Source of the DNA: Candidatus Heimdallarchaeum aukensis
GTDB taxonomy: Archaea; Asgardarchaeota; Heimdallarchaeia; Heimdallarchaeales; Heimdallarchaeaceae
DNA length: 64,000 bases
Direction of reading: 5' to 3'
Assembly (NCBI GenBank): GCA_021513695.1
Contig: CP084166.1
Coordinates: forward strand, 416,001 to 480,000
Part shown: positions 251 to 27,288 of the stretch, piece after piece
Numbering within the stretch: the stretch's first letter is position 1
Layout: each line of letters begins with the position of its first letter
Made by a program: the position numbers and the translations under genes
The notes under the pieces: model-generated
Database searches by the model: none
Seen by the model: only the letters and a program-made list of their open reading frames with translations
What the model was told of the DNA's origin: nothing

Positions 251-2464
251 TTACGATTTATCTTTTTGTTCTTTCTTTGCAGATTTTTTATTGTTTTTTG
301 GAGATATATCATATTTTCTTAAAGTTTGGGAATTGATAGCGACGATTACTGTACTCAAAGACATCAAAATTGCGCCTATAGCAGGGTTTATTATTACACC
401 TACACTTGCTAGAACTCCTGCAGCTAAAGGAATAGCGATTATATTATATCCTGCTGCCCACCATAAATTTTGAATCATTTTCTTGTATGTTTGCTTCGAT
501 AATTCAATTAATCTGATAACATCATTTGGGTTATTTCTTACAAGGATAATATCTGCGCTTTCTATTGCAACATCAGTTCCTGCCCCTACTGCAATTCCTA
601 CATCAGCAGTAACTAATGCAGGAGCATCATTAATTCCGTCTCCGACCATAGCGACTTTGTATCCTTCCTCTTTTAATTTTGTAATTTTATCAGCTTTCTC
701 ATGTGGAAGAACTTCTGCAAAATAGTCATCCATTTCTAATTCTTTTGCTACCCATTTTGCTACTTCTTCTGCATCGCCTGTAAGCATGTATGTTCTTATT
801 CCTAAAGATTTTAACTTCTCAATAGCAATTCTTGAATCTTCTCTTATTTTATCTGCTAGAGCAAATGCGCCAGCAAGTTTGTCATCAATTATTGTAAAGA
901 TTACAGTTTTTCCTTGTTGTTGCACTTGTTTTATCTTCTCATCTTCTATTTCTATTTTCAACTCGTCAAGTAAGTTTGGGCTACCAACATAGACTGTTTT
1001 TCCATTTATTTTACCTTTTACACCTTTACCTGGCATTACAGTAAAATCAATAGTTGAAGGGATCTTTATTTTCTTCTCTTTTGCATAATCTACTATAGCT
1101 TTTGCAATTATATGCTCAGAGTTAATCTCTAACGCTGCAGTTAACTCCAATAACTCTTCTTCAGGAATGTACGAGATAACATCAGTTACTCCAAAGTTTC
1201 CTTCAGTCAAAGTTCCTGTTTTATCAAAAACTATAGCATCTATGTTTCGAACGTTTTCAAATCCAGTTCTGTCTCTTATAAGTACTCCACTTTTAGCAGT
1301 AATAGAAGTAGATAAAGCAACAACTAGAGGAATAGCTAAACCTAACGCATGGGGGCAAGCAATAACTAATACTGTTACAGCTCTCTCTAAAGCGAAATCA
1401 GGAAAACCAAGAAGGAACCATGTAGTATAAGTTATGATTCCTGCGATAAGTGCTACATAAAATAATAATGCTGCTGCACGATTAGCTAAATCTTGTGTTC
1501 TTGATTTACTCATTTGTGCTTTTCTTACTAAGTCTATTACTTGAGCAAGATAATTTTCTTCACCAGTTTTAGTTATTTTTACATGTAAAATTCCTTCTGA
1601 ATTTATAGATCCACCAATAACCATGTCATCCACAGTTTTGGATACAGGCATTGATTCTCCAGTCAAAAAAGCTTCATTTACATATGAAGAACCGTCTATA
1701 ACTACACCATCTGAAGGAATTTTTTCTCCAGGTCTAACAAGTGTAACATCATTGATTTTAAGCTCGGAAACGGAGACATCAATGATTTCTCCATCCTTGA
1801 TTAAGTGAGCAGTAGTAGGCATAATCTTTACTAATTCCTCTAATGCTCTCGAAGCTCCCATAATACTTTTTGCTTCCACCCAGTGACCTAGTAGCATAAC
1901 ATCGATCAATGTAGCAAGCTCCCAAAAGAAATCTACTCCTTCAATGAAAAACACAGTAGCAGCCGAATAAAAGAAAGCTACAGATATTGCCATTGCAATA
2001 AGTGTCATCATACCAGGAAGTTTTTTCTTGATTTCGTTAAATAAGCCTTTTAGAAATGGCCAACCACCATAAAAATAGATAAGTGATGAGATTGCAAGAA
2101 CTAATTCTCTTTGAAAATTAAAGGTAATCTCAAAGTTTAACCATAGCTGAATTGTTTCAGATAGAAGTAAAACTGGAATGGTTAAAATTAAAGAGACAAA
2201 AAATCTTTTCTTGAAGTCAGAAATGTGAGCAGAATGGTCATGAGATTTGTGGTCCTGATGATCTCCATGTTTCATTTTAGTTCCTGTAGATCCATGATCT
2301 TTGTGTTCTTGATGATTTTGATGCGTAGTATGTGCTTCTGCAGAAACATGACTTTTATGATCCTTATGATCTTTATGTTTCATATGAGATTCTGAAGAAT
2401 CATGTTTTTTGTGATTTTGGTTATCATGATCTTGATTTTTATTTCCTTTGTTCATTTTTTTCAC
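251..2464 (-). CDS. copB: Heavy-metal (copper) translocating P1B-type ATPase, CopB-like with a His-rich N-terminus
   Basis: 737-aa ORF with the P-type ATPase motifs TGES (LTGESMPV), DKTGTLT, MLTGD and MVGDGINDAPAL. It has the CPH transmembrane metal motif (CPHALGLAIP). The N-terminal tail is His-rich (HKKHDSSESHMKHKDHKDHKSH, HGDHQDHKSHDHSAH), as in CopB/P1B-3 pumps. Confidence 0.9.
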   Translation of the reverse strand: MKKMNKGNKNQDHDNQNHKKHDSSESHMKHKDHKDHKSHVSAEAHTTHQNHQEHKDHGSTGTKMKHGDHQDHKSHDHSAHISDFKKRFFVSLILTIPVLLLSETIQLWLNFEITFNFQRELVLAISSLIYFYGGWPFLKGLFNEIKKKLPGMMTLIAMAISVAFFYSAATVFFIEGVDFFWELATLIDVMLLGHWVEAKSIMGASRALEELVKIMPTTAHLIKDGEIIDVSVSELKINDVTLVRPGEKIPSDGVVIDGSSYVNEAFLTGESMPVSKTVDDMVIGGSINSEGILHVKITKTGEENYLAQVIDLVRKAQMSKSRTQDLANRAAALLFYVALIAGIITYTTWFLLGFPDFALERAVTVLVIACPHALGLAIPLVVALSTSITAKSGVLIRDRTGFENVRNIDAIVFDKTGTLTEGNFGVTDVISYIPEEELLELTAALEINSEHIIAKAIVDYAKEKKIKIPSTIDFTVMPGKGVKGKINGKTVYVGSPNLLDELKIEIEDEKIKQVQQQGKTVIFTIIDDKLAGAFALADKIREDSRIAIEKLKSLGIRTYMLTGDAEEVAKWVAKELEMDDYFAEVLPHEKADKITKLKEEGYKVAMVGDGINDAPALVTADVGIAVGAGTDVAIESADIILVRNNPNDVIRLIELSKQTYKKMIQNLWWAAGYNIIAIPLAAGVLASVGVIINPAIGAILMSLSTVIVAINSQTLRKYDISPKNNKKSAKKEQKDKS

Positions 2465-2655: not shown

Positions 2656-5600
2656 TTAGTTCATGCTTTCTTTTAGATAAACCCAAGTATAACCCATTTG
2701 TTTTTGGACTATTTCTTCTGGTTTTCCTTCTGAGATTATGTACCCTCCTAGCTCTCCTCCTTCTAGACCTAAATCTATAACATAGTCTGCCTGTTTAATT
2801 AAATTCATTTCGTGATCAATTAGAACCACACTGTGTCCTTTATTTGCTAATCTATGAAGAATTTCAATAAGTTTTTCTAAATCAAAAAAGTGTAATCCTT
2901 GAGAAGGTTCATCTAGGATGTAAATACTATTTCCATAGGTTCTTTTAGATAGTTCTCTTACAATCTTTAATCTTTCAGCTTCTCCACCACTTATTGTTGT
3001 TGTTGGTTGTCCCATTTTCAAATAACCTAAACCTGCTTCAACAGCTAATTTTAATGGAGCACTTATTTTTTCTAGATCCCTAAATAACTCATATGCTTCT
3101 TCAATAGTCATCTCAAGAATATCAGAGATAGATTTTTGTTTGTACTTTACAGCTAGAACTTTTTTGTTATACCTTTTCCCCTTACAAATAGGACAAGTTA
3201 ACCATACATCAGATAAGAAAAGTAATTCTACCTTCTTTTGCCCTAATCCTTTACATTCTGGGCATTGTCCTTTTTTTACATTAAAACTAAAATGAGCAGA
3301 GCTCATTCCTCTGTTTCTTGATTCAGGTAGTTCAGCATAAAACTTTCTTATCTCGTCAAAAACTCCAAGATAAGTTGCTGGAGTTGAACGAACAGATTTA
3401 CTCATTGCAGATTGATCTACAGCAATAACTTTTTTGATATCTTCAAAACCTTTAATTTCTTTATGTTTTCCTGCTTCTATCTTCTTTTTAGAAATTTTTT
3501 TCTCTAAAGCTTTTTGTAAAGTATCTATAACCAAAGAAGATTTACCCGCACCTGATACTCCAGAAACAGCAGTAATAATTCCCTTTCCAAACTTTGCTGT
3601 AATATTTTTAAGATTATTTTCTTGTGCTCCTACTAAAGTTATATTTTCTGAAGTTTTTCTTCTTTTAGTAGGCGTTTTTATTTTTCTCTTGCCATAAATA
3701 TAGCTACCAGTAAGAGAAGATTCGCTTTTAAGAACCTCATTGGTTGAACCAAAGTTAATTATTTCTCCTCCTTCTTCTCCTCCCCTTGGTCCTAACTCAA
3801 TTATATAATCAGACTCTTTAATTATTGTATCGTCATGTTCTACTACTATTACGTGATTGCCATTTTCTTTTAATTTCTTCATGGTGTCTAATAGCCTGTT
3901 AATGTCTCTTGGATGTAAACCAATAGTGGGTTCGTCTAAGCAATAAGTTACCCCTATTAATCCACTTCCTATTTGAGAAGCTAAGCGTATTCTTTGTGCT
4001 TCTCCATTGGATAATGTACTTGCTCTTCGATCAAGAGTTAAATATTCTAACCCTACATCTACTAAATATTGAGCTCTTTTCTTTAATTCGGAAAGGATTC
4101 GCTCTGCTATTTTCGACCTTCTTTTATCTAATATTATATTATTCAGAAATACAAGAAAGTCTTTAACTGAATATTTTGTCAAATCTGTAATTGATTTGTT
4201 ATTAATTGTAATAGCTAAAACTTCTGGTTTAAGTTTTTCTCCCTTACAGTCGGGGCAAAGATACTCTGAATAATATTGGTTCATTTTTTCTTTATATTTA
4301 AGTGACCAAGTCGAATCTGTTTCAGATTTCATCCAATCATCCCAACGAGGAATTAATCCTTCCCAAGGTTTTTCTCTAATATACTCTGATACAGATTTAC
4401 GACTTTCTTGACGATAAACTATTTCTACTATTTCGCCATCTGAACCATAAAATAAAGCATGTAGTTGTTGAGGAGTAAAATCTTTTAGAGGAGTAGAGAG
4501 AGTGAAACCAAAGTGTTTTCCTACTGATTCTAACATACTTCGTCTCCAAGAGTTAGGATTACTCATTCTTTGTGCAGTATAAGGACCAATTGCTCCTTCA
4601 ATTATTGATTTATTCCAATCTGTAACTATCTTTCTAATATCAAATTTTCTGATCATTCCCAATCCTGTACAAGTTGGGCAAGCTCCTGAATAGTGATTAA
4701 AACTAAATAACCTTGGGTGAATCTCTTCTGGGACTTCAATTCCATGCTCTAAACATTCAGCATTGAATGAATACCTTTTTCCTTTTTTATCTGTAGAATA
4801 GACTTCTATTCTCCCTTTTCCAAGTTCTCTAGCTATTTCTAATGAATCAACAAATCTCGTATCTTCAACTTTTGATAAATCTATTCTATCAATCACAACT
4901 GAAAGTGTTTTAACATTATCAACACTAAACTCTTCATCTAAATGTAATAGTTTCTCATTTAGTAAAATCCTTGTATATCCTTCTTTCTTTAGTTCTTTTA
5001 CAATTTTAGATATATCTACTTGCTCTCCATTTAATACTGAAGCAGCAAGGTATATTTTCTTATCTTTGAACTCTTTTCTAATCAATTTTGCTATTTCTGT
5101 TTCTGTCCTTTGTTTTAATTCAATAGAACATTTAGGACAATGAGGAATACCTACTTTTGCAAAAAGAAGACGAAGATAATCATAAATTTCAGTAGTTGTG
5201 GCAACAGTGGAACGAGGATTATGTGAAATTGAATGTTGATCTATTGCAATTGAAGGAGTTAAGCCTACTATTTCTTCTACTTCTGTCCTTTCTGCCCGAT
5301 TTAGAAACTGTCTAGCATAACTGCTCAAACTTTCAATAAATCTTCTTTGCCCTTCAGCAAATAGTGTATCAATAACTAAACTACTTTTTCCACTACCAGA
5401 AACTCCAGTAACAACAACAAGATTATTTTTTGGAATAGTAAGATCAAGATTTTTTAGATTGTTCTTTTTTGCTCCTTTTACATAAAGAAAACTGCTTGGA
5501 TCTAATTCTTTATCTGATGTGGAAATAGAATTTTTACTTACTGTTTGCTCTTTTTCTAATTCTCTCTTTTCTCCTTCTAAAACCTTTTTTAGAGCTTGAC

Positions 5601-8445
5601 CTGTATATGACTCTTTAATTTTCACAATTTCTTCGGGAGTACCAAAACCAACTAAATATCCTCCCTTTTCTTCTCCTCCTTCAGGACCTAAATCAATGAT
5701 ATAATCTGCAGTCTTAATTACATCTAACTGATGCTCTATTACAAGAACGGTGTTTCCTTTATCTACTAATTCTTGTAAAACTTTGATTAGTTTCTTGATA
5801 TCTTCAAAACTTAAACCTGTAGTTGGTTCATCTAAGATATACAGAGTCTTACCAGTAGCTCTTTTAGCTAATTCTCTACTCAATTTTATTCTTTGCGCTT
5901 CTCCTCCAGAGAGAGTAGTAGAAGACTGACCTAATTTTATATAGTCTAAACCTACAGCTTCAAGAGTTTTGAGTATTCTAACAATTTTAGGTTGGTTCTC
6001 AAAAACATTTAATGCTTCACTTACAGTCAAGTTAAGTATATCTGCGATAGAATATCCTTTGTATTTAACTTTAAGTGTTTCATCATCATATCTGTTTCCT
6101 TTACAAATTTCACACTCTACCTCAACATCAGGTAAAAGAGACATCTCTATAGTGTTAAAACCTTTTCCTTGACAAGCTTCACATCTACCAGGGCTGTTAT
6201 TAAAACTAAATCTAGTTTTTGTATATCCTCTCAGTTTAGCAGTAGGAAGAGAAGCAAATAAGTCTCTAATAGGGTCAAGCATCTTTGTGTAAGTTGCAGG
6301 ATTTGAACGAGTAGTTCTACCTATAGGTGATTGGTCAATAACAACTACTTTATCGATATTCTCGACTCCTTTCAAAGTCTTGAATTTTCCTGCTTTCTGT
6401 TTTCCATGATGTAACTTATTTACTAAAGCGGGATAAAGGGTATCAGAAACTAAACTACTTTTACCGCTTCCAGAAACTCCAGTTACGCAAACAAATGTTC
6501 CTAAAGGTATCTTTACATCTATATTCTTTAGGTTATTGTGCTGAGCTCCTTTTAATTCAAGAAAAATATTGCTCTTTCTTCTCTTTTTAGGAACTGAAAT
6601 TGAGTCAAGGTTTAGTAAATATCTAGCTGTAAAAGAGCGTTTAGCGTCTTTTTCACTTATATCTCTAGGGTTTTTAGCAAAAAGTAATTCTCCGCCTAAA
6701 CTACCTGCTCGAGGTCCTAAATCTATTAAAACATCTGCACTCTGTAAAGTGTCTTCGTCATGTTCAACAACAATAACTGTATTCCCACCATCACGTAGAG
6801 TCTTTAAAGAAGAAAGAAGCTTTTCATTATCTCTATTTGCTAAACCTATGCTAGGTTCATCTAGAACATAATTAACTCCTTGAAGTTTAGCTCCTATTTG
6901 TGTTGCTAATCTAGTTCTTTGAGCTTCTCCGCCACTTAAATCAACAGCACTTCTATCTAAAGTGAGATAATGAAGACCCACCTCGATTAAAAAATATAAT
7001 CTGCTTATGATTTCCCTAAGAAGGGGTTTTGCTATCTTTTCTTCCTCTGGAGATAACTTTAAACTGTTAAAGAAATTGTAACATTCTTCTATAGACATTT
7101 GATTAAGTTCAGCAATATTTTTTCCATGGAAAAGTACAGATAGACTTTCATTCTTTAACCTTAGCCCTTTACAATCAGGACAAGTTTGAAGTTCCATATA
7201 TTGTTCTAAACGTTCTTTCATGCTTTTAGAAGAAGTTCTGTAATAACCCTCCATTGTTGCAGGAATAAAACCTTTCCATTTTACATCTGAAGTTCCCCGG
7301 GCTTTCCAGACACTATCTCTTGCTCCCCATTTCCAATTAATGGTATACTCTTTACTTCCAGTACCGTACATCAAGATTTGTTTGTGTTCTTCAGGCAAGT
7401 CCTTCCAAGGAATAGAAATATCAATACCTAACTGTTTAGCAATCTGTGCAATAGAATTTTTGCTCAATCCAGTATAAGTAAAGTGATCTCCACTTTTCGT
7501 CTGTAAAGCTATTGCATGTTCTAATAAAGGATTATCAGGATTAGTAACAAGTTTGTCGGGAACAATTTGAGGAAGCTTACCTAAACCTTTACATCTTGGA
7601 CAAGCTCCAACAGAAGAATTATAAGAAAAATCTCGAGGGTGAAATTCATTAACAGATAAACCACATTGAGGACAAACAAGCTTATTAGAAAAAATCTTTT
7701 TTTCCTTTTCTCCAATAATCTTTACTTTCCCATCAGCGAGATCTAAGCAAAGATCTACACTATCACGGATACTAGCTTCATTTTTCCTCAAACATTTATT
7801 TCTATCTACAACTATTTCAATATCATGGGCGACATATCTTTCCAATTTTGGAAACTTTTCATCCAGATTAATCTCTTCTCCATCAATGATTAAACGAGTA
7901 AAACCTTCTTCTTTCCATTTTGCTAGTTCTTTCCTGTACTCACCTTTTCTTTTTTTAAACATTGGTGCAACAATCTTGACTTTTTGTCCTTCAAAAGAAG
8001 CGAATATTTGATCTATTATCTGATCAGAAGGTTGTGCATCTATTTTAATATTACATATTGGACAATGAGGAACACCTACTCTAGCAAAAAGAACACGCAA
8101 GTAATCATATATTTCTGTTAAAGTTCCAACAGTACTTCGGGGATTCCTAGAAATGGTTTTCTGGTCAATAGAAATGGTAGGTCTTAAACCTTCAATATGT
8201 TCAACATCTGGACGATCAAAGTTGCCAATAAATTGTCTAGCATAAGCAGATAGAGTTTCCATATATCTTCTCTGAGCTTCTGAAAAAATAGTATTGAAAG
8301 CTAGTGAACTCTTCCCACTACCTGAAACGCCAGAAATTACCACTAGTTTATCATGTGGAATAGAAATAGTTATGTCTTTCAAGTTATTTTCTTTAGCTCT
8401 AATAATTTTAATACTGTCAGTACTAGAAGTCATATGATTATTCAC
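2656..8445 (-). CDS. Tandem-duplicated UvrA-like ABC ATPase: two complete UvrA units fused, four nucleotide-binding modules
   Basis: 1929-aa ORF, about twice the length of a normal UvrA (about 940 aa). Unit 1 starts IKIIRAKENNLKDITISIPHDKLVVISGVSGSGKSSLAFNTIFSEAQRRY. Unit 2 restarts near nt 5490 with LYVKGAKKNNLKNLDLTIPKNNLVVVTGVSGSGKSSLVIDTLFAEGQRRF. There are four Walker A sites (GVSGSGKSS x3, GVSGAGKSS) and four signature motifs (LSGGEAQR x2, LSNGEAQR, ISGGEAER). There are four Walker B sites (YVLDEPSIGL, YILDEPTTGL, YCLDEPTIGL, YILDEPSQGL). CxxC zinc modules occur in each unit. Confidence 0.85.
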   Translation of the reverse strand: MNNHMTSSTDSIKIIRAKENNLKDITISIPHDKLVVISGVSGSGKSSLAFNTIFSEAQRRYMETLSAYARQFIGNFDRPDVEHIEGLRPTISIDQKTISRNPRSTVGTLTEIYDYLRVLFARVGVPHCPICNIKIDAQPSDQIIDQIFASFEGQKVKIVAPMFKKRKGEYRKELAKWKEEGFTRLIIDGEEINLDEKFPKLERYVAHDIEIVVDRNKCLRKNEASIRDSVDLCLDLADGKVKIIGEKEKKIFSNKLVCPQCGLSVNEFHPRDFSYNSSVGACPRCKGLGKLPQIVPDKLVTNPDNPLLEHAIALQTKSGDHFTYTGLSKNSIAQIAKQLGIDISIPWKDLPEEHKQILMYGTGSKEYTINWKWGARDSVWKARGTSDVKWKGFIPATMEGYYRTSSKSMKERLEQYMELQTCPDCKGLRLKNESLSVLFHGKNIAELNQMSIEECYNFFNSLKLSPEEEKIAKPLLREIISRLYFLIEVGLHYLTLDRSAVDLSGGEAQRTRLATQIGAKLQGVNYVLDEPSIGLANRDNEKLLSSLKTLRDGGNTVIVVEHDEDTLQSADVLIDLGPRAGSLGGELLFAKNPRDISEKDAKRSFTARYLLNLDSISVPKKRRKSNIFLELKGAQHNNLKNIDVKIPLGTFVCVTGVSGSGKSSLVSDTLYPALVNKLHHGKQKAGKFKTLKGVENIDKVVVIDQSPIGRTTRSNPATYTKMLDPIRDLFASLPTAKLRGYTKTRFSFNNSPGRCEACQGKGFNTIEMSLLPDVEVECEICKGNRYDDETLKVKYKGYSIADILNLTVSEALNVFENQPKIVRILKTLEAVGLDYIKLGQSSTTLSGGEAQRIKLSRELAKRATGKTLYILDEPTTGLSFEDIKKLIKVLQELVDKGNTVLVIEHQLDVIKTADYIIDLGPEGGEEKGGYLVGFGTPEEIVKIKESYTGQALKKVLEGEKRELEKEQTVSKNSISTSDKELDPSSFLYVKGAKKNNLKNLDLTIPKNNLVVVTGVSGSGKSSLVIDTLFAEGQRRFIESLSSYARQFLNRAERTEVEEIVGLTPSIAIDQHSISHNPRSTVATTTEIYDYLRLLFAKVGIPHCPKCSIELKQRTETEIAKLIRKEFKDKKIYLAASVLNGEQVDISKIVKELKKEGYTRILLNEKLLHLDEEFSVDNVKTLSVVIDRIDLSKVEDTRFVDSLEIARELGKGRIEVYSTDKKGKRYSFNAECLEHGIEVPEEIHPRLFSFNHYSGACPTCTGLGMIRKFDIRKIVTDWNKSIIEGAIGPYTAQRMSNPNSWRRSMLESVGKHFGFTLSTPLKDFTPQQLHALFYGSDGEIVEIVYRQESRKSVSEYIREKPWEGLIPRWDDWMKSETDSTWSLKYKEKMNQYYSEYLCPDCKGEKLKPEVLAITINNKSITDLTKYSVKDFLVFLNNIILDKRRSKIAERILSELKKRAQYLVDVGLEYLTLDRRASTLSNGEAQRIRLASQIGSGLIGVTYCLDEPTIGLHPRDINRLLDTMKKLKENGNHVIVVEHDDTIIKESDYIIELGPRGGEEGGEIINFGSTNEVLKSESSLTGSYIYGKRKIKTPTKRRKTSENITLVGAQENNLKNITAKFGKGIITAVSGVSGAGKSSLVIDTLQKALEKKISKKKIEAGKHKEIKGFEDIKKVIAVDQSAMSKSVRSTPATYLGVFDEIRKFYAELPESRNRGMSSAHFSFNVKKGQCPECKGLGQKKVELLFLSDVWLTCPICKGKRYNKKVLAVKYKQKSISDILEMTIEEAYELFRDLEKISAPLKLAVEAGLGYLKMGQPTTTISGGEAERLKIVRELSKRTYGNSIYILDEPSQGLHFFDLEKLIEILHRLANKGHSVVLIDHEMNLIKQADYVIDLGLEGGELGGYIISEGKPEEIVQKQMGYTWVYLKESMN

Positions 8446-9722: not shown

Positions 9723-10121
9723 CTAACAATTACTAGAAATTAAACAGTTAATCTTTTCTAATATTGTCTTTAGTCTAAAGGGTTTTCTAAGATAATGTAA
9801 CCCTAATTCTTCAACTTGTTTCTGAATTGAACCTTGAAATGCTGTTATTGCAATAATAGGAAGATTAGCATTAGAAAGAATAATTCTAGAAGCTTCAATT
9901 CCACTCATTTCTGGCATCTTAATGTCCATCAAGATAAGATCTGGTTTCCATTCTCTTGCAATAACTACAGCCTCTTTGCCGTTTTTTGCCATCCTAACTT
10001 CAAAAGAATCTTTCAAAAATTCATGGAATATTTTTCTTATATCCTCTTCGTCATCTGCTACAAGAATCTTCTTTGTTGGGTTAGAAAAAGGAGCAAGATT
10101 GTTTGATAAATTTAATAACAT
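9723..10121 (-). CDS. Stand-alone response regulator receiver (CheY-like)
   Basis: 132 aa. It has the acidic pocket VADDEED, a phospho-acceptor context DLILMDIKMPEMSG, and conserved T/K positions (IIAITAF, LRKPF). There is no output domain. Confidence 0.8.
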   Translation of the reverse strand: MLLNLSNNLAPFSNPTKKILVADDEEDIRKIFHEFLKDSFEVRMAKNGKEAVVIAREWKPDLILMDIKMPEMSGIEASRIILSNANLPIIAITAFQGSIQKQVEELGLHYLRKPFRLKTILEKINCLISSNC

Positions 10122-12043: not shown

Positions 12044-12529
12044 TTGTTTTCCATGTCTTACCAAACTTTTGCTGAGAAGTGCGAACCTGCTGTTCCAAAG
12101 TATGTACATTACATTATTGCAGGTCTTGCATGGTTAGGAGTAGGAATAATGTTATCTAATTTTGCTATTCAATGGTTAATCGTTGCAGAGGTACCTCTTG
12201 TTTGGATTTATGGTTTAATTGGAACAATTGCTGGTTTTATCATCTACTACTTTGGTTTTTCGCATATTGCCAAAAAGAATGTTAAAAGAATAGTTGAAAA
12301 AAGGCATAAATTCTGTGTTTTTGCTTTTATTTCTTGGAAATCATACTTGACAATACTTGTTATGGTTGCAATGGGGATAGGATTGAGATTGTCTCCTATA
12401 CCTAAACACTATCTAGCCGTCTTATACATTGGTTTAGGAATAGGTTTAGGTCTGTCTAGTTTTGTTTATTTTGGAAAAACTATTCTTCATTTCAGAAATA
12501 ACCAACCAGATCAAATAACAAACAATTAG
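12044..12529 (+). CDS. Hypothetical membrane protein
   Basis: 161 aa with a TTG start and four predicted TM helices. No recognised motif. Confidence 0.4.
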   Translation: MFSMSYQTFAEKCEPAVPKYVHYIIAGLAWLGVGIMLSNFAIQWLIVAEVPLVWIYGLIGTIAGFIIYYFGFSHIAKKNVKRIVEKRHKFCVFAFISWKSYLTILVMVAMGIGLRLSPIPKHYLAVLYIGLGIGLGLSSFVYFGKTILHFRNNQPDQITNN

Positions 12530-13422
12530 TTTTTTTCTCTTTTATCATTAGTTCTTTCTGAATATGGGGTATAGAATTCTCCCAATTTAATCTTGCTCAG
12601 GTTCCACTCTATTATTTCTTGCAATTGTTTGTTTATTTCGTATCCTATATAATGTCTATAAGCTCCTTTACACACCACTGCTGTTGTACCGTTTCCCATA
12701 AAAGGGTCTAGAATTATATCTCCAGGTTTGCTTCCAAAATCTATACATCTTAAAACAACATCTGTTGGAAGTTTTGTTGCATTCTTTTTTATTCCCGTGT
12801 GATATACTCTTTTTATATTCCAAACATCTTCTGGGTAGTGTTCAATTTTATTAAAAAAATAGTTTCTTTTGTTTTTTACAGCAAAAAGAATATGATAATG
12901 ACTTGTAACAAATTTTCTTTTTGTAAAAACTCCAAATTGATATTTCCAAATTATGTGATTAATTAACTCCAAATTGTTTTTTTCCAGAGCAAATAGTATA
13001 TCTTTTAAATTTGTCCACCCACTGAAAATCCACACTCCTCCACTTTTTTTTAATATTCTCGGCAGTTCACTTATCCATCTATTTGTAAATTCAGAGTAAT
13101 TACTAATTTCTACCTCTTTGTAACCCTCAATTACATTATTTTTGTCTCTATTGTATATACCTTCTTTTCCGTTAAAATTTATTCCAAAGGGAGGATCAGC
13201 AACAACCATGTCAATGCTATTATCAGGAAGTTTTCGCATACCTTCAATGCAATCTTCATAATGGATAATATCAATATCAAAATTACATTTAGAACTCTCA
13301 TAAAGAGCTCTAGCTTCTGAAATAGTCCAATCATAAGTGGGTTTAAACTTTTTAGAGCTTTTTTTAGTGCTATGCTTATTTTTTCCTTTTTTGGTTGTTT
13401 GAGATTCCATAGATTTCTTCAT
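12526..13422 (-). CDS. Beta-class N6-adenine/N4-cytosine DNA methyltransferase (orphan)
   Basis: 298 aa. The catalytic motif IV DPPF (VVADPPFGINF) precedes the SAM-binding motif I (DPFMGNGTTAVV) near the C-terminus, which is the circular permutation typical of beta-class MTases. No restriction endonuclease candidate is adjacent. Confidence 0.8.
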   Translation of the reverse strand: MKKSMESQTTKKGKNKHSTKKSSKKFKPTYDWTISEARALYESSKCNFDIDIIHYEDCIEGMRKLPDNSIDMVVADPPFGINFNGKEGIYNRDKNNVIEGYKEVEISNYSEFTNRWISELPRILKKSGGVWIFSGWTNLKDILFALEKNNLELINHIIWKYQFGVFTKRKFVTSHYHILFAVKNKRNYFFNKIEHYPEDVWNIKRVYHTGIKKNATKLPTDVVLRCIDFGSKPGDIILDPFMGNGTTAVVCKGAYRHYIGYEINKQLQEIIEWNLSKIKLGEFYTPYSERTNDKREKN

Positions 13423-15394: not shown

Positions 15395-18067
15395 TTAATA
15401 TTTCTTTCCACAGATATCAATTTCTTCAAAAGTTTCCTTAACTTTATTTTTCTTTTGTTTTGTTCTGAAGATAATTTCAAATAAAACAATTGAAAAAATG
15501 AAAATCATCCAAACTATACTTTTACTGATAATTTCTTTTCTTCTAGTAATACCTATGTTTGAATTAGGATCTAATGGGTCAAAATCATTCATTACTTCTT
15601 CATAATCAGTATATGAATCTCCATCTGTATCAGGATCGTTGGGATCAGTATTATAAAATTTTACTTCTTCAAAATCGTCCAATCCATCAAAGTCACTATC
15701 TATGCGTAAAGGATTAGTATGGTAAATAAATAATTCTTCATAATCATCTAGTAAGTCACCATCTGTATCACGATTTAGGGGACTAGTATTGTAATTATTT
15801 ACTTCTTCTCCGTCTTTTAATCCATCATTATCAGAATCACTATCATTGGGGTCAGTATCGTACATGTAAATTTCAAGATTATCAGACAAACCATCCAAAT
15901 CTGAATCTTTTAATGTAGGATTTGTTCCATAAACAAATACTTCTACTCCATCATCTATTCCATCATTATCTGAATCATCATTTGTAGGATCTGTTCCATA
16001 AGCGTATATTTCATCACCATCTAATAATCCATCAAAGTCAGTATCATTATTCCTTGGATCAGTATTGTTTTCAAATTCGTGAATATTATATAATTCATCA
16101 TTATCAAAGTCAACATAGGCATCAATTGGATTAGCAACATCTAAACCATAGTAATATTCCCAGTAATTTGTCATTCCATCGCTGTCTAAATCTCCATCAG
16201 CATCGCTTGGATCATCAGGATCTAATCCTACACTAACTTCCCAGTAATCAGGCATTTTATCGTTATCACTATCTCTTACTAGTTTTATGATAAAAGCATC
16301 AATATATCCTTCCAAAGTGGAATTTAAAGGGCTTTTTAAAAGAAGATCATTACTCTCTGTACTCCCTACTATGTAGATAGAACCATCACTATCCACTGCT
16401 ATATCTCTACCTACATCTTCTTCTCTTCCACCAAAATATGTGCTAAAAACTAAATTTGTTCCACTTCTGTTTAACATAGAAACAAAAATATCGGAATAAT
16501 AAGTAGGATTTCTTTCTTCAATTGCATTTTTAATCGGAAAATCATTGCTCCATGTTCCACCTGTTAAATAGACGTTTTGATCATTATCTACCGTTATTGA
16601 CAAACAAGTATCATTTGATGAACCACCTAAAAATGTACTATAGATTATATTATCAGCTGTTGAACTTATTTTTGTTAAAAATATGTTAGAATATCCATTT
16701 AGTGTGTCATCAAAGGCATTTTTTGTTGGAAAGTCAGTACTATTTGTAACACCAGTGATATATACATAACCTTCACTATCAATAGTTATTCCTCTGGCAT
16801 AATCATTATACTTTCCCCCTAAATAAGTGCTAAAGATTAACCCATTTCCTGTAGAGTTAATATAGGATAAATAAACATCAAAAAAGCTTCCACCACCATA
16901 AGTAGAATTAAAAGCATTTACAGTCGGAAAATCATCACTTCTTGTAGATCCAGTAATGAAAATAGAACCATTAGAGAAAACTTTACCTTTAGCAAAGTAT
17001 TCAGCATCACTTCCCCCTATTATTGTGGTGAAAATAGGTTCAAGAGTTTCTCCATCAAGTTTAGTAACAAAAGCATCATAATCATCATCTGAAATATTTC
17101 CAAAAGCAAAGTTGTTGAATAAAGAAGTGCTCATAGTATCTCCAAAAATGTATATATTTCCATCATTTCCTATTTCTATCTTGCGTCCATAATCAAAAAT
17201 ATCCCCGCTTAAATAAGAACTAAAATCTACTAAATAAGGATCAATAATCAATTTTTTAGCTGTATCATATTGTTCAATATTAAAAATATAACAGTTGTCA
17301 TCAAGAGTAAAATAAGCGGGGATAATTTTTCCTTCTTAAAAAACTTTTAAGTTTCTATCATTAAAAATTCTATATTCTGTATTTCCGATTCTTGAGATTC
17401 CAACTATATTAGTTTCATCTTCTTGTTTTAAGTAAAACTTTGAATCTGATGATAGTTGAACCTTAATAACTGAAGGATCAGCGTTTGGTTCAACAATAAA
17501 TTCGTATTTCAGAAATGAACCTGTAAAATAGTATCTTAAAGATATTCCGGGGTATATATCTTCATATATTATTTCTTGATAACAGCTTATTTGAGTAATT
17601 GCTTTATCTTTGTAAAAAAAGTTAGAATAGTAATTTGCTAATGCTTTTGCCTGTGGTACAACGATATTTGAATCAGGAAAAGAGACATTAATTAAGAAAA
17701 ATTTAGTATTTTCTTCTTTATTCGGTTTAAGATTCTGAATAAAGTAGACCTTAGATTCTCCAAAGTAAACATTTGTTAAAGGAGATTGAGCATAATAAAA
17801 AACTGTCTTGTCAAATATATGCCCTTTATTTTTCATAAAAAAGTATTTAGAATTGTAATCACTGACATAGTTCTCTTCAATTTCGCCGGAAACACTGTAA
17901 AAATTAATTTTTGCTTTATTTTGCTGTTGTGAATATTTTATGCTGTAAGAGCCAACTAAAGTGTTATTTTTGACATAAAATCCAGATAAACTGCTCACAC
18001 TTACAAGAAAGATTAAAAACAAACAAACAATAAATGAAACATTTCCTTTGCTTTGATTTTCATTCAT
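15395..18067 (-). pseudogene. Surface protein gene (signal peptide, N-terminal domain, SBBP-type beta-propeller repeats, TSP3-like Ca-binding repeats, TM anchor) interrupted by one in-frame TAA at 17336-17338
   Basis: The ORFs 17336..18067 and 15395..17251 are in the same frame, as (17335-17251) is 84 nt, or 28 codons. I translated the gap by hand as ...NLKVF*EGKIIPAYFTLDDNCYIFNIEQYDTAKKLIIDPYLV, which is open apart from the single TAA. The downstream part has only a TTG pseudo-start and no signal peptide, while the upstream part carries the signal peptide (VSFIVCLFLIFLVSVSSLSG). SBBP-like repeats are present (YLGGKYNDYARGITIDSEGYVYITGVTNSTDFPTKNAF). So are TSP3-like repeats (DSDNDGIDDGVE, DTDGDLLDDYEE). 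Confidence 0.6.
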
Positions 18068-23063: not shown

Positions 23064-25118
23064 TTGAACAGAGCAAAAAAAATAGTACCTTTAGCTATAA
23101 TATTTGTTCAAATAATTCTTTTTACTAGCTTACAGTATAGTTCCGTCAATGCAGATGAGATTCAGTATAACGTAATTGGAATAAACATCAATTCCGATAG
23201 TGATTTTATTGATTTTGCAAGGACAGGAGCAGGAACTAAAGAAGATCCCTACATAATTTCAGGGTATCACTTTGAGTACTATGAAATTGGGATATTTATT
23301 TCACAAACAAGTAAATATGTCATAATAACTAACTGTTCTTTTTCTAACATCAAATATGAAGCAATAAGATTGTGGTCTGTCAAATCTGGAACAGTAAGAA
23401 TAGAAAACAATACGATTGTTAATGCAAAAGTGGGAATATTCCTATATGAAGCTCCAGATTGTACAATAATAAGTAATAAAATAATGAACTGTTCTGCTTT
23501 TGCAATTAAAGATGATTTTTCTAGAATAGGATCAAAAATTATGAACAATACACTTTATAACAACGAAGAAGGAATAACCATAAGTGAAACTAATTACACT
23601 CAAATACTGAATAATTACATAATTTACAGTAGAAATGTTGGCATTTATTTAATGGATACCACAAATGGAACAGAAATACATCATAACTTCTTCTTAAATG
23701 CTAACAAACCTGCTTTTACAACAGCTTGTAGTTATGGATATTATAATAATTGGACATCAAATTATTGGAGTGATTGGGATGGTTCAAGTCCATATAAAAT
23801 AGAGAGTAAATATGAACAAACTTTTGACACAAATCCTTTAAGTTTCGATGACTCTGATGGAGACAAAATAATCGATATTTTAGAACTTGTTATGGATATG
23901 AATCCAGAATCAACCGACAACGACTCTGATGAAATTTCAGATTATGATGAATTACTTATTTATGCAACAAACCCTAATACAATAGATACAGATGAAGATG
24001 GAATAACAGATTATGATGAAATATTTGTATATTTAACAAATCCGAATACACAAGATACAGATAAAGATGGAATAACAGATTATGATGAAGTATTTGTATA
24101 TCATACAGATCCGAATAAAAAAGACTCAGATGGTGATACCTTTTCAGATTATGAAGAAATATTACAGAAAACCAATCCTAGGAAAAGTTATAGTAATCCA
24201 ATTACAAAAAAATATTTGACAATCTTTCTTCCAATTTTTTCAGGTTTATTTGGTGTTGCATTTCTTTCAACTAGATATTACTCTAACTCAAAGAAAAACA
24301 AAATTAAGGTAATCTTTGACACATGGAATGAATTTTTCAATGAATGGGAAAAAATAATTGAACAGATAAATAAATCAGGAAATTCAGAAATAGAAGAAAT
24401 AATCTTTGAGGTAAATCAGTTAAAAGAAAAAAAAGTAGATGAGCTTGAATTTGTCAAAAAAATAGTAGCTCAATCAAAGAAACTACTTATAGAACATATG
24501 AAATTCAACGTTGAATTAAGTTTACAAAAATACAAAAAGCAAATAGAAATTTTTGTTAACCTACAGAGTAATTTGATTGATAAAGCTTTAATTACCCTTA
24601 ATCAAATAACAGAAAATACAATTCTTAATGCTGTAAAAGATTATTTGTGGATGAGATTCGTTTATTTGTATAGTACTACTAGCAAATCAGAAGCAATTAC
24701 CACTATTGAAGATGTGAGTGGAGATGCACTTTTTAACAAGTTCATTAAATTTTATAGATCTTTAGATTATGAGGAAAGACTGAAAAAAGAAATATCCAAC
24801 TTAGCAGAAGAAGTAAAATTTCAGATAAATCAAGCAAAAAAATATGAAATTGAGCTTATAGAAAGTTCAATAAACTCTATTATTGATTCTCTATTTGATA
24901 AATTTAATAAACTTGAGATCGATATAAATATTCTTCAAGAAAAAATCAAGGATATAAACATCGCTCAGATTAAACTAGATAATCCTTCCGAAACTTTTGT
25001 TAGAATCGAAAATATAGTAAAAGAAGAAGTGAACATACAAATGAAAGATAAAGAAGAGTCTATTCAGTCTAATCTTTTCTCTAATCAAGAAAAAGGGTTA
25101 AAGAATCCGCGTGAATAG
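23064..25118 (+). CDS. Type I membrane protein: right-handed beta-helix (NosD/PbH1-like) ectodomain, TSP3-like Ca-binding repeats, TM, about 290-aa cytoplasmic coiled-coil tail (paralog 1)
   Basis: 684 aa. Signal-like N-terminus. Parallel beta-helix repeats are present (IENNTIVNAKVGIFLY, IISNKIMNCSAFAI, LNNYIIYSRNVGIYL). TSP3-like repeats follow (DTDEDGITDYDE, DTDKDGITDYDE, DSDGDTFSDYEE). The TM segment is LTIFLPIFSGLFGVAFL. The tail is K/E-rich. Confidence 0.7.
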   Translation: MNRAKKIVPLAIIFVQIILFTSLQYSSVNADEIQYNVIGININSDSDFIDFARTGAGTKEDPYIISGYHFEYYEIGIFISQTSKYVIITNCSFSNIKYEAIRLWSVKSGTVRIENNTIVNAKVGIFLYEAPDCTIISNKIMNCSAFAIKDDFSRIGSKIMNNTLYNNEEGITISETNYTQILNNYIIYSRNVGIYLMDTTNGTEIHHNFFLNANKPAFTTACSYGYYNNWTSNYWSDWDGSSPYKIESKYEQTFDTNPLSFDDSDGDKIIDILELVMDMNPESTDNDSDEISDYDELLIYATNPNTIDTDEDGITDYDEIFVYLTNPNTQDTDKDGITDYDEVFVYHTDPNKKDSDGDTFSDYEEILQKTNPRKSYSNPITKKYLTIFLPIFSGLFGVAFLSTRYYSNSKKNKIKVIFDTWNEFFNEWEKIIEQINKSGNSEIEEIIFEVNQLKEKKVDELEFVKKIVAQSKKLLIEHMKFNVELSLQKYKKQIEIFVNLQSNLIDKALITLNQITENTILNAVKDYLWMRFVYLYSTTSKSEAITTIEDVSGDALFNKFIKFYRSLDYEERLKKEISNLAEEVKFQINQAKKYEIELIESSINSIIDSLFDKFNKLEIDINILQEKIKDINIAQIKLDNPSETFVRIENIVKEEVNIQMKDKEESIQSNLFSNQEKGLKNPRE

Positions 25119-25259
25119 CTTTATTTCTCTTTTATAGTTGATACTTTTATTACAATGAACTTACTCACAATCTCTCTCCAAAAATATGAAATATAATCTT
25201 TCTTCCTAATGAATCAAACATTATTTATAATCTAATTTCACTTTTCTTTTTTCAATTTT

Positions 25260-25302
25260 AGAAAAATTTTTATTAAAGGTACAAAGATATGATTGAAGGG
25301 GT
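25260..25302 (+). promoter_or_regulatory. Conserved promoter/5' leader module of paralog 2
   Basis: It has the same AGAAAAATTTTTATTAAA box, the same ..GATATGATTGAAGGGGT leader and a TTG start at the same spacing as at 23021. Confidence 0.45.
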
Positions 25303-27288
25303 TTGAAAATAAAAAAGTCAAAATCTAATCTGTTAGTTTTGTTTTTAATATTGTTCTTTACTAGTTCTACCTATTTTCATATAAAAGCAGATGATAATAC
25401 AAAATCAGGTTTTGCAATTCAAATCTCTTCTAACGATGAATTTTCTTTATTTTCAAAAGCAGGTAACGGAACTAAAGAAAATCCCTATGTTATCTCAGGA
25501 TATATCATTGAACACTTCGAAGCAGGTATTTTTATATCTCAAACAACCAAATTTTTCGTTATTACTAATTGTACTTTTCTTAATCTAAAATATGAAGCCA
25601 TACGAATAATGACAGTAGATGTTGGTAATGTTAGAATAGAAAATAATACGATTATTAATACAAAGTTTGGAATTTATATATATCAAGCTCCAAAAAGTAT
25701 TATTGTAAATAACAAAATCGTTAATTGCACTGTATCAGGAATAAGAGACGAATTTTCAGGAATAGGTTCTAAAATTGAAAACAACACTCTTTACAACAAT
25801 GAAGAAGCTATTACAATTTATTCAACAAATTATACTCAAATATTAAATAATTATATAATCAAAAGTCGGAAAGCTGGCATATTTCTATTGTGGAAACCAA
25901 ATGGAACAGAAATACATTATAACTTTATTCTAAACTCAGTAAAACCTTATATTGCAACTGCTCACAACGAAGGATTCAATAATAATTGGACATCAAATTA
26001 TTGGAATGACTGGAATGGAACAGGAGATTATCAAATAAGTAGCATTTATGAAACAACATTTGATAAAAATCCTTTGAGTTTTAATGACACTGATGGAGAT
26101 AAAATAATTGATATTTTGGAACTTGTAATGAATACAGATCCTTATGTGGTAGATAGCGACAATGACGGAATTGATGACTATAATGAATTGCTTAATTATG
26201 CAACAAACCCTAATGCCCAAGACAGTGATGGAGATGGAATATCTGATTATGACGAAATAATTGTATATACAACAAATCCCAATGCACAAGACACTGATGG
26301 AGATGGAATAACAGATTATGATGAAGTATTTGTTTATGGAACTGATGCAAAGAAACGAGATACTGATGGCGATACTTTTTCTGATTATGAAGAAATATTA
26401 ATGAAAACTAACCCTAAAAAAAGTTACAGTAATCCTATTATTAGAAGATATCTAACCATCTTAATTCCTACTTTTTCAGGAGTACTTGTTATTGCAGCTT
26501 TTTCAACTAGATACTATACCAACTCAAGGAGAAACAAAATTAAGGTGATTTTTGAAACATGGAATGAATTTTTCACTGAGTGGGAGAAAATAATTGAGCA
26601 GATAAACAATACAAAAAATTCAGAAGTTGAAGAAATAATATTTGAGGTAAAGGAACTTAAAAATAAGAAAATTGACGAACTTGAGCTTGTAAAGAAAATA
26701 ATCAGTCAAGCTAAAAAATTACTTATCAATCATATGAAGTTCAATGTTGAATTAAGCTTACAAAGATATAAAAAGCAAGCTGAAATTGTAATTAATCTAC
26801 AGAATAACTTAATTAGCCAAGCATTAACTGCTCTTAATCAAATAACAAAGAATACAATACTAAACGCTGTAAAAGATTACTTGTGGATGAGATTTGTTTA
26901 TCTATATAGCACAACAGAAAAATCTGAAGCCATAACTACTATTGAAGATATAAGTGGAGACACTCTTTTTAACAAGTTTGTCAAATTTTACAAATCATTA
27001 GATTATGAAGAGAGATTGAAAGAAGAAGTTGCTCATTTGGCAGAAGAAATCAAATATCAAATAAGAAAAGCCAAAGATTATGAAATTGATCTTTTAGAGA
27101 GTTCAATAAATTCAATTATAGACTCTTTACTTGATAAGTTTAACAAGCTTGAAGTTGATATTAATTTTCTTGAAGAAAAAATAAAAGACATTAGTGTTGA
27201 ACAGTCCAAGATCGATAATCCAAAAGATGCCTTCTTAAAAATAGAAAAAATAGTTAAAGAAGAAGTGAAAGAACAAAAAAGCAATTAA
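25303..27288 (+). CDS. Type I membrane protein: beta-helix ectodomain, TSP3-like repeats, TM, cytoplasmic coiled-coil tail (paralog 2)
   Basis: 661 aa and collinear with the 684-aa neighbour. Long identical stretches include DKIIDILELVM, NAVKDYLWMRFVYLYSTT and SINSIIDSL. Confidence 0.7.
   Translation: MKIKKSKSNLLVLFLILFFTSSTYFHIKADDNTKSGFAIQISSNDEFSLFSKAGNGTKENPYVISGYIIEHFEAGIFISQTTKFFVITNCTFLNLKYEAIRIMTVDVGNVRIENNTIINTKFGIYIYQAPKSIIVNNKIVNCTVSGIRDEFSGIGSKIENNTLYNNEEAITIYSTNYTQILNNYIIKSRKAGIFLLWKPNGTEIHYNFILNSVKPYIATAHNEGFNNNWTSNYWNDWNGTGDYQISSIYETTFDKNPLSFNDTDGDKIIDILELVMNTDPYVVDSDNDGIDDYNELLNYATNPNAQDSDGDGISDYDEIIVYTTNPNAQDTDGDGITDYDEVFVYGTDAKKRDTDGDTFSDYEEILMKTNPKKSYSNPIIRRYLTILIPTFSGVLVIAAFSTRYYTNSRRNKIKVIFETWNEFFTEWEKIIEQINNTKNSEVEEIIFEVKELKNKKIDELELVKKIISQAKKLLINHMKFNVELSLQRYKKQAEIVINLQNNLISQALTALNQITKNTILNAVKDYLWMRFVYLYSTTEKSEAITTIEDISGDTLFNKFVKFYKSLDYEERLKEEVAHLAEEIKYQIRKAKDYEIDLLESSINSIIDSLLDKFNKLEVDINFLEEKIKDISVEQSKIDNPKDAFLKIEKIVKEEVKEQKSN

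Follow-up and report, generated by a model that had tools for sequence, protein, structure and literature searches.

Does a single archaeal gene that carries the motifs of UvrA twice over encode two working UvrA units, and if so, does one such chain take the place of the UvrA homodimer? The question is raised by a 64,000-nucleotide stretch of the Candidatus Heimdallarchaeum aukensis genome (contig CP084166.1, positions 416,001 to 480,000; hereafter the window, to which all coordinates refer unless another locus is named), in which one long open reading frame (ORF) on the reverse strand was noticed. We found that this gene is a real, intact fusion of two complete class I UvrA units. Judged from its sequence, and with rather better than even confidence, we favour the reading that the product would be a single-chain, pseudo-heterodimeric UvrA, a damage-sensing ATPase working in UvrABC nucleotide excision repair.

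The ORF comprises 1929 codons and a stop, with a GTG start at 8445. An in-frame TAA immediately precedes this GTG. Four codons further on, at 8433, there is an alternative ATG, and an archaeal-type TTTAAATA box is found some 57 nt upstream of that codon; hence the true product is probably the 1925-amino-acid (aa) protein that begins at this ATG. A first-pass annotation, made from the letters alone, had described the ORF as two full UvrA units with a restart near aa 985, and both statements were borne out. The NCBIfam equivalog model for class I UvrA (NF001503/TIGR00630; 943 positions, curated cut-off of 1147 bits) matched unit 1 with 1309.2 bits and unit 2 with 1160.5 bits, in each case end to end (model positions 3–942 and 5–941, respectively), and the Pfam domains UvrA_inter (PF17760) and UvrA_DNA-bind (PF17755) were each found twice, once per unit. 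With unit boundaries set against E. coli UvrA, the second unit begins at aa ~985–988 (nt ~5484–5493). Unit 1 is 48–50% identical to the E. coli protein, with unit 2 being the more divergent at 42.5–44%. Both units match UvrAs in the PDB along their whole length, the alignment of unit 1 covering 955 residues (1043 bits to PDB 2r6f); E-values were 0 against both the UvrA models and the solved structures, such that chance is not an issue. The comparison of the halves with the UvrA classes, which the first-pass annotation had proposed, placed both in class I, each having a UvrB-binding and an insertion domain.

The same annotation had raised the worry of a tandem misassembly, and this a priori possibility is all that speaks for an artefact in which neighbouring or duplicated uvrA copies were wrongly merged into one ORF. 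The two halves are only 42–44% identical to each other, which rules out a collapsed or duplicated assembly. Moreover, a one-genome-per-species scan showed that Ca. Heimdallarchaeum endolithica PR6 carries the same fused gene on its closed chromosome, where it is 95% identical to the window gene at the amino acid level and 92.6% at the DNA level, with a single unbroken alignment of 5862 nt across the in-frame junction and with syntenic flanks. The junction is likewise continuous in 119 independent contigs (NCBI, JGI, ENA and Logan assemblies), and other assemblies labelled Heimdallarchaeaceae or Asgard contained a near-identical partial copy (99%) and 18 cluster representatives at 61–77% identity. 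We regard the fusion as genuine and the chance of an artefact as negligible.

A second concern, that one half might be a degraded copy without ATP-binding residues, was dispelled by the selection on both units, by their predicted folds and by the catalytic residues of the four ATP sites. The ratio of nonsynonymous to synonymous substitution rates (dN/dS) between the window and PR6 genes was 0.061 and 0.086 for units 1 and 2, respectively, and stayed below 0.35 in every domain, showing that both units are under strong purifying selection. The lowest value in the gene (0.012) was that of core a of the first nucleotide-binding domain (NBD-I) of unit 2, followed by the insertion domain of the same unit. 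AlphaFold2 models of the separate units were confident throughout, with predicted local distance difference test (pLDDT) scores of 86.3 for unit 1 and 84.9 for unit 2, and the best Foldseek match of the unit 2 model was 3uwx_A, the UvrA chain of a UvrA–UvrB complex, with template modelling (TM) scores of 0.84/0.86 over 947 columns. The synonymous divergence (dS) from PR6 was itself uneven along the gene, at 0.47 in unit 1, 0.19 in unit 2 and 0.033 in NBD-I core b of unit 2 (aa 1401–1591, nt ~3673–4245); in this last segment the two Heimdallarchaeum lineages may have recombined recently.

All four ATP-binding cassette (ABC) modules keep the Walker A lysine, the Walker B Asp-Glu, the signature motif (in some cases as a variant) and the H-loop histidine. 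The deviations listed in the first-pass annotation were all found (GLANRD, aa 534–539, in unit 1; LSNGE, aa 1478–1482, and ISGGEAER, aa 1818–1825, in unit 2), together with others that it had not listed, namely GLSFED in unit 1 and GVSGAGKS, an altered Q-loop, IDH and a C-x2-H zinc pair in unit 2. Unit 1 has consensus Walker A, signature, Walker B and H-loop motifs with both D-loop histidines gone. In the canonical forms, DEPSIGLH and DEPTTGLH, a histidine follows each Walker B and, judged by motif spacing, occupies the position of the ABC D-loop aspartate; Ala takes its place in module I of unit 1 and Ser in module II. In the second Q-loop of unit 2 the clade has LSKSxRS, compared with IGRTPRS in the canonical protein. 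The six CxxC zinc pairs are complete in unit 1; in unit 2, 17 of the 19 clade members have C-x2-H as the second pair of zinc module 1, the two most divergent (P0018 and P0019) keeping CxxC, and this altered pair may still bind zinc.

Family-wide, the double UvrAs have a canonical consensus in all four modules, and the ATP-site substitutions of both units are identical in every one of the 19 representatives of the window clade (61–99% identity). They are absent from the sister group of this clade and from the bacterial doubles that were inspected, which fits the earlier suggestion that a fusion would let the halves diverge into a pseudo-heterodimer. Four sister-group members (P0020, P0111, P0047 and P0035) have a change of their own in unit 1, where Walker B-II reads EEP in place of DEP. 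The distal composite ATP site of UvrA is made up of ATP-binding site II and signature I (PMC6486640), and on this composition four of the five unit 2 motif changes (LSNGE, GAGKS, Q-loop-II and IDH) fall in one and the same composite site, namely the distal one of unit 2. If other ABC proteins are a guide, this site has probably been remodelled into a slower, more regulatory one. Asymmetric ABC heterodimers such as CFTR, TAP1/2 and TM287/288 combine one consensus with one degenerate ATP site, the CFTR signature reading LSHGH. They would resemble the fused UvrA in having a non-consensus signature beside intact Walker A and B motifs in one site, and in being a pseudo-symmetric pair made permanently asymmetric; unlike it, they are membrane transporters with two sites, the fused UvrA being a putative soluble repair sensor with four, in which degenerate-site behaviour is presumed from the comparison.

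The same changes could be read as decay, leaving one unit, most plausibly unit 2, as a catalytically silent scaffold that serves structure and UvrB docking only. Measured against E. coli UvrA, unit 2 has evolved faster than unit 1, and its LSNGE motif is accompanied by a changed Walker A, Q-loop, H-loop neighbour and signature II. Nevertheless, we consider such silencing unlikely, as unit 2 retains Lys1020, Lys1635, both DEP Walker B motifs and both H-loop histidines, and its low dN/dS falls to 0.012–0.013 in the NBD-I core and insertion domain. Furthermore, its variant motifs are invariant across the clade, suggesting a tuned rather than a dead site.

The asymmetry extends to the surface that contacts UvrB. 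The UvrB-binding domains are folded in both AlphaFold2 models (pLDDT about 75–93), as are the insertion domains. In E. coli UvrA, R216 and E222 are the residues that have been used experimentally to disrupt the UvrB interaction surface (PMC3025350). An ungapped alignment, anchored by the flanking VVDR and LxL..G motifs, showed that this pair is replaced in unit 1 of the window protein (S225 for R216 and D231 for E222) and kept in unit 2 (R1197 and E1203). Across the clade, unit 1 has Ser at the R216 position in 15 of 19 members and Asn, Thr, Ser or Asp at the E222 position, and unit 2 has Arg in 18 and Glu in all 19. Within-clade identity is reciprocal, with the UvrB-binding domain at 70% in unit 1 and 43% in unit 2, and the insertion domain at 45% and 63%. 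The sister group is in part the opposite, the R216 equivalent having been lost from unit 2 in 7 of 11 members (to Gln), and among the other doubles it is missing from 48 of 95 UvrB-binding domains in unit 2, compared with 12 of 93 (13%) in unit 1.

A hint in the first-pass annotation that the gene might be a UvrB-uncoupled paralogue did not hold up, given the folded UvrB-binding domain of each unit and the Arg/Glu pair retained in unit 2. Its remark that no uvrB or uvrC lies nearby was true of the window, in which neither was found by tblastn with E. coli UvrB and UvrC (E ≤ 1e-3) or by a Pfam scan of the large ORFs; as evidence, the remark has little if any weight, since the uvr genes are dispersed in E. 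coli and unlinked in six related Asgard loci. UvrAB has been reported in Asgard metagenome-assembled genomes, and Asgard archaea are reported to use a bacterial-type UvrABC (PMC12993045). We hence find it very doubtful that the fused protein acts on DNA independently of UvrB, in the manner of the class II proteins Ecm16 and DrrC in drug resistance. Class II UvrAs do function without UvrB (PMC9328131), unit 1 has no UvrB-contact pair, and uvrB and uvrC are seen neither in the window nor beside the related loci; against this stand the UvrB-binding domains of both units, the absence of which defines class II (PMC3167621), the Arg and Glu that unit 2 keeps, the normal lack of linkage between uvr genes and the reported presence of UvrABC in Asgard archaea.

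Table 1. Features of the double uvrA gene in the window (all on the reverse strand).
Feature	Position (nt)	Strand	Evidence
Whole double-UvrA ORF, stop codon included	2656..8445	-	ORF call; 95% aa identity to PR6 gene over full length
Unit 1, complete class I UvrA, aa 10–955	5581..8418	-	NF001503; PDB 2r6f; AlphaFold2; dN/dS 0.061
Linker between units, aa 956–987, LEGEKRELEKEQTVSKNSISTSDKELDPSSF...	5485..5580	-	Hydrophilic; sequence and length vary among relatives
Unit 2, complete class I UvrA, aa 988–1926	2668..5484	-	NF001503; AlphaFold2; Foldseek; dN/dS 0.086
Unit 1 UvrB-binding domain, aa 139–253	7687..8031	-	Pfam; alignment; AlphaFold2
Unit 2 UvrB-binding domain, aa 1114–1226	4768..5106	-	Pfam; alignment; AlphaFold2
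Unit 1 insertion (DNA-binding) domain, aa 295–416	7198..7563	-	Pfam; alignment; dN/dS
Unit 2 insertion domain, aa 1269–1391; most constrained accessory domain, dN/dS 0.013	4273..4641	-	Pfam; alignment; dN/dS
Unit 1 Walker B-I and D-loop, LDEPSIGLANRDN; D-loop His to Ala, clade-fixed	6826..6864	-	Motif alignment
Unit 1 Walker B-II and D-loop, LDEPTTGLSFED; D-loop His to Ser, clade-fixed	5800..5835	-	Motif alignment
Unit 2 signature I, LSNGEAQR vs LSGGEAQR; distal site	3991..4014	-	Motif alignment; PMC6486640
Unit 2 Walker A-II, GVSGAGKSS, Ser to Ala, Lys1635 kept; distal site	3535..3561	-	Motif alignment
Unit 2 Q-loop-II region, MSKSVRSTPATY replacing IGRTPRSNPATY	3370..3405	-	Motif alignment
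Unit 2 signature II, ISGGEAER vs LSGGEAQR; proximal site	2971..2994	-	Motif alignment
Unit 2 H-loop-II, LIDHEMN: IDH vs IEH, His kept	2803..2823	-	Motif alignment
Unit 2 zinc module 1 second ligand pair, ECLEHG (C-x2-H) vs CxxC	4741..4758	-	Motif alignment

The architecture itself is not unusual: fused doubles are numerous, diverse and already covered by an NCBIfam model. Among the best 120 homologues of the whole protein all are double-length except the truncated entries P0001 and P0021, and they include proteins from Parachlamydia, Chlamydiales, Planctomycetes, Armatimonadota, Bathyarchaeia and Heimdallarchaeota; 119 full-length double homologues were counted. A search of 50%-identity representatives with unit 1 alone gave 73,348 matches, of which the best 150 were all fused or extended (1219–2343 aa), although such a search favours fused proteins at the top because the scores of two matching units add up. 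The existing model, for the chlamydial double UvrA (NF001885/PRK00635, 1809 positions), matched the whole window protein with 1389.2 bits, well under its cut-off of 3054, so that the window protein is not an equivalog of that family.

We sorted 119 classifiable representatives by architecture, writing B or b for a UvrB-binding domain present or absent and D or d for an insertion domain present or absent, with unit 1 before the bar of each label and unit 2 after it (here given as a slash); these classes are crude, being taken from alignment occupancy of E. coli columns 140–240 and 295–395. There were 31 BD/BD, 40 BD/Bd and 32 bD/bD representatives and 16 with other one-sided losses, BD/bD (4 clusters) and Bd/BD (5 clusters) among them. 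The window protein is BD/BD, reproducibly over independent assemblies. In 119 relatives the linker measures 20–69 aa, nearly all being 20–49 and none below about 20. Two further forms were noted in passing. Among P0121–P0268 there are 1200–1450-aa proteins with a partial unit, or some other N-terminal region, ahead of a single UvrA unit, and the planctomycete-type doubles (~2300 aa) carry a C-terminal extension of ~350 aa, seen in 27 of the 119 homologues (e.g., P0022, aa 1957–2308; P0056, aa 1997–2345), that has no Pfam match and holds a PWExxGxKWH motif twice, with versions of 65–200 aa in P0027 and P0085.

Public records label these double proteins simply as UvrA, and full-text literature searches found no description of fused double UvrAs. 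A 2008 review of bacterial UV repair is said to have classified UvrA variants, duplicated ones included. The exact window protein had no record in the contig index, and the Heimdallarchaeum genome paper with its 25 supplementary files does not mention Uvr genes. The gene belongs, as a lineage-specific form, to a kind of protein that is abundant and catalogued and, it would seem, unstudied; its clade-specific part is the fixed asymmetry of the units.

To examine the origin of the archaeal doubles, 45 representative doubles were split into their halves and placed in a neighbour-joining tree with E. coli UvrA as the root; the single-unit UvrAs available for rooting were those of E. coli and one Flavobacteriaceae. 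The window clade and a second archaeal group (P0020, P0029, P0047 and P0111), which carries Heimdallarchaeota and Bathyarchaeia labels, were sisters in both the N-half and the C-half parts, with bootstrap values of 84 and 96, respectively. This sisterhood in both halves indicates that, on the sequences compared, the archaeal doubles descend from one already-fused gene, with the window clade fixing its asymmetric changes after the split. Deeper in the tree, 44 of the 45 C-halves fell in one clade, and N-halves and C-halves formed corresponding sub-groups; the bootstrap of the deep node was only 26. A profile test of archaeal against bacterial C-halves looked positive, with control units of unrelated double types scoring in the same range, and only four columns separate bacterial N-halves from C-halves, of which the window clade agrees at two and contradicts none. 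The most economical and most likely reading is that the archaeal gene was acquired by transfer as an already-fused bacterial uvrA, which fits the reported bacterial origin of archaeal UvrABC (PMC12993045). A separate observation concerns P0054 (1899 aa), the halves of which are 60.5% identical, the highest value of 238 doubles, and cluster together, suggesting an independent and younger duplication-fusion.

In the favoured pseudo-heterodimer, the two class I units, head to tail on a flexible linker of ~30 residues, would pack together such that one chain replaces the UvrA2 homodimer, forming one DNA groove with two zinc hairpins and two insertion domains. No longer forced to be identical, the two protomers could have sub-functionalised. 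Unit 2, with its Arg/Glu pair, would be the UvrB-loading side and would carry the tuned distal ATP site, and unit 1 would contribute consensus catalytic motifs with altered D-loops and no UvrB-contact pair, such that the working complex would be A-A'·B, asymmetric by construction, in place of a symmetric A2B2. Experiments have shown that UvrA2UvrB1 complexes exist (PDB 9ga3; PMC11985968), and in a homodimeric UvrA the insertion domains have been assigned distinct functions, ‘recognition’ and ‘support’ (PMC11985968). Together with the one-sided losses of accessory domains and of R216 among the doubles, such complexes suggest that one UvrB contact surface may suffice.

Pairing of the two units within one chain is presumed here from sequence. 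They might instead pair between chains or swap domains, unit 1 NBD-II with unit 2 NBD-I, giving a larger assembly with eight ATP sites; no sequence feature forbids this, and the linker of ~30 aa resembles the natural NBD-I/NBD-II connector region in length. We consider this likewise unlikely, as the frequent losses of an accessory domain from one unit in other doubles are most easily explained if one chain is one functional dimer. In addition, no linker falls below about 20 residues, a minimum that would be expected were it to span the distance between the C-terminus of one protomer and the N-terminus of the other.

Several points nonetheless weigh against the single-chain pseudo-heterodimer. 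The UvrB-binding domain of unit 1 may bind UvrB through other residues, or may bind another partner, and its better conservation (70% compared with 43% in unit 2) implies that it still does something. The consequences of the LSNGE, GAGKS, IDH and D-loop changes for ATP turnover are argued by analogy, and the reach of the linker, on which pairing within the chain depends, is an estimate. Neither uvrB nor uvrC was found within 10 kb in seven related loci (six Asgard loci and PR6), nor in the window. Finally, a common origin with the bacterial doubles is weakly supported, given the low bootstrap of the deep node, a profile test confounded by divergence and the small number of informative columns. 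A bolder possibility, which we judge distinctly unlikely, is that the re-surfaced UvrB-binding domain of unit 1 docks a different partner and only unit 2 loads a single UvrB, making the protein an obligately asymmetric sensor; that partner could be archaeal or eukaryote-like, for example a transcription-repair or XP-type repair factor. If true, such re-purposing would tie an imported bacterial excision system to the host's own machinery.

With one of its nearest known systems, the canonical class I homodimer (G. stearothermophilus 2R6F/3UWX and the E. coli protein), the window protein has in common two ABC modules, three predicted zinc modules and the UvrB-binding and insertion domains in each unit, at 42–50% identity to E. 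coli UvrA and with the match of unit 2 to 3uwx_A given above. It differs in having non-identical protomers in one chain, with unit 1 lacking the R216/E222 pair and the D-loop histidines and unit 2 having a remodelled distal site and the C-x2-H pair. The bacterial doubles of Chlamydiae, Planctomycetes and Armatimonadota (e.g., Parachlamydia P0057, 1927 aa; Calycomorphotria P0056, 2345 aa) are also arranged head to tail, with a 20–45-aa linker, and are 42–45% identical to the window protein over its full length. Unlike this archaeal protein, they keep the R216 equivalent in both units along with consensus motifs, and many have the ~350-aa C-terminal extension or have lost one accessory domain. 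Class II UvrAs (D. radiodurans UvrA2, Ecm16 and DrrC) and the bD/bD doubles (~1600 aa) are UvrA-family ABC ATPases too, binding DNA as dimers, and fused versions exist (32 clusters), but class II is defined by having no UvrB-binding domain (PMC3167621, PMC9328131), a domain that both window units possess.

The surroundings of the gene yielded further observations. Downstream of uvrA lies an intact P-type ATPase gene (251–2464, reverse strand, 737 aa). In PR6 (L007, 18443–20909) a segment corresponding to window positions 785–1422 is inverted and the ATPase gene is broken up into three ORFs (209, 104 and 178 aa). A search at the ends of this segment revealed no convincing inverted repeats, and the split could be a real inversion or a pseudogene, or an error in the PR6 assembly. 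Between uvrA and the ATPase gene, PR6 also has ~2.6 kb of extra DNA that the window lacks at ~2465–2655; it holds two ORFs, one of 378 aa and one of 167 aa (L007, 16008–17951).

On the upstream side, a DinB-family gene (PF05163; 10230–10706, forward strand) and a stand-alone response-regulator receiver (9723–10121, reverse strand) lie within 2 kb of uvrA, and a response regulator is near the double uvrA in L001 as well. In both sister-group loci an N6/N4 DNA methylase lies directly upstream of the double uvrA and divergent from it (L003, 9007–9720; L020, 8999–9709); a methylase of the same family occurs in the window at 12526–13422 (reverse strand), ~4 kb from uvrA, which may be coincidence. 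Two clade members have Rad50-like (SMC_N/AAA_23, ~712 aa) and Mre11-like (Metallophos) genes 7–9 kb downstream of uvrA (L002, 24973–25763; L019, 22877–25751), which may reflect a loose clustering of repair genes. The window is also rich in large proteins of secreted or surface type (15395–17251, 23064–27288, 45536–48505 and 57796–62244) with NosD/beta-helix, beta-propeller, FG-GAP and bacterial TSP3 repeats, and similar genes flank uvrA in L001 and L018.

The gene itself is not exceptional, having a common architecture and the annotation UvrA; that an Asgard archaeon should carry it agrees with what is known of the import of bacterial UvrABC by mesophilic archaea. Its value lies in an open problem, namely how a symmetric UvrA2 dimer yields an asymmetric outcome, one UvrB on one strand; the stoichiometry (A2B2 or A2B1) and the ‘recognition’ and ‘support’ roles of the insertion domains are questions raised around this asymmetry (PMC11985968). 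The recurrent loss of one insertion domain or one UvrB surface in fused UvrAs is comparative evidence that a single copy can suffice. In a homodimer it is impossible to mutate one protomer alone, and a natural single-chain UvrA would remove this obstacle, enabling experiments site by site and protomer by protomer. The Heimdallarchaeum protein is a clean case for such work, having complete units, the UvrB-contact surface on one unit and a single one of its four ATP sites apparently remodelled.

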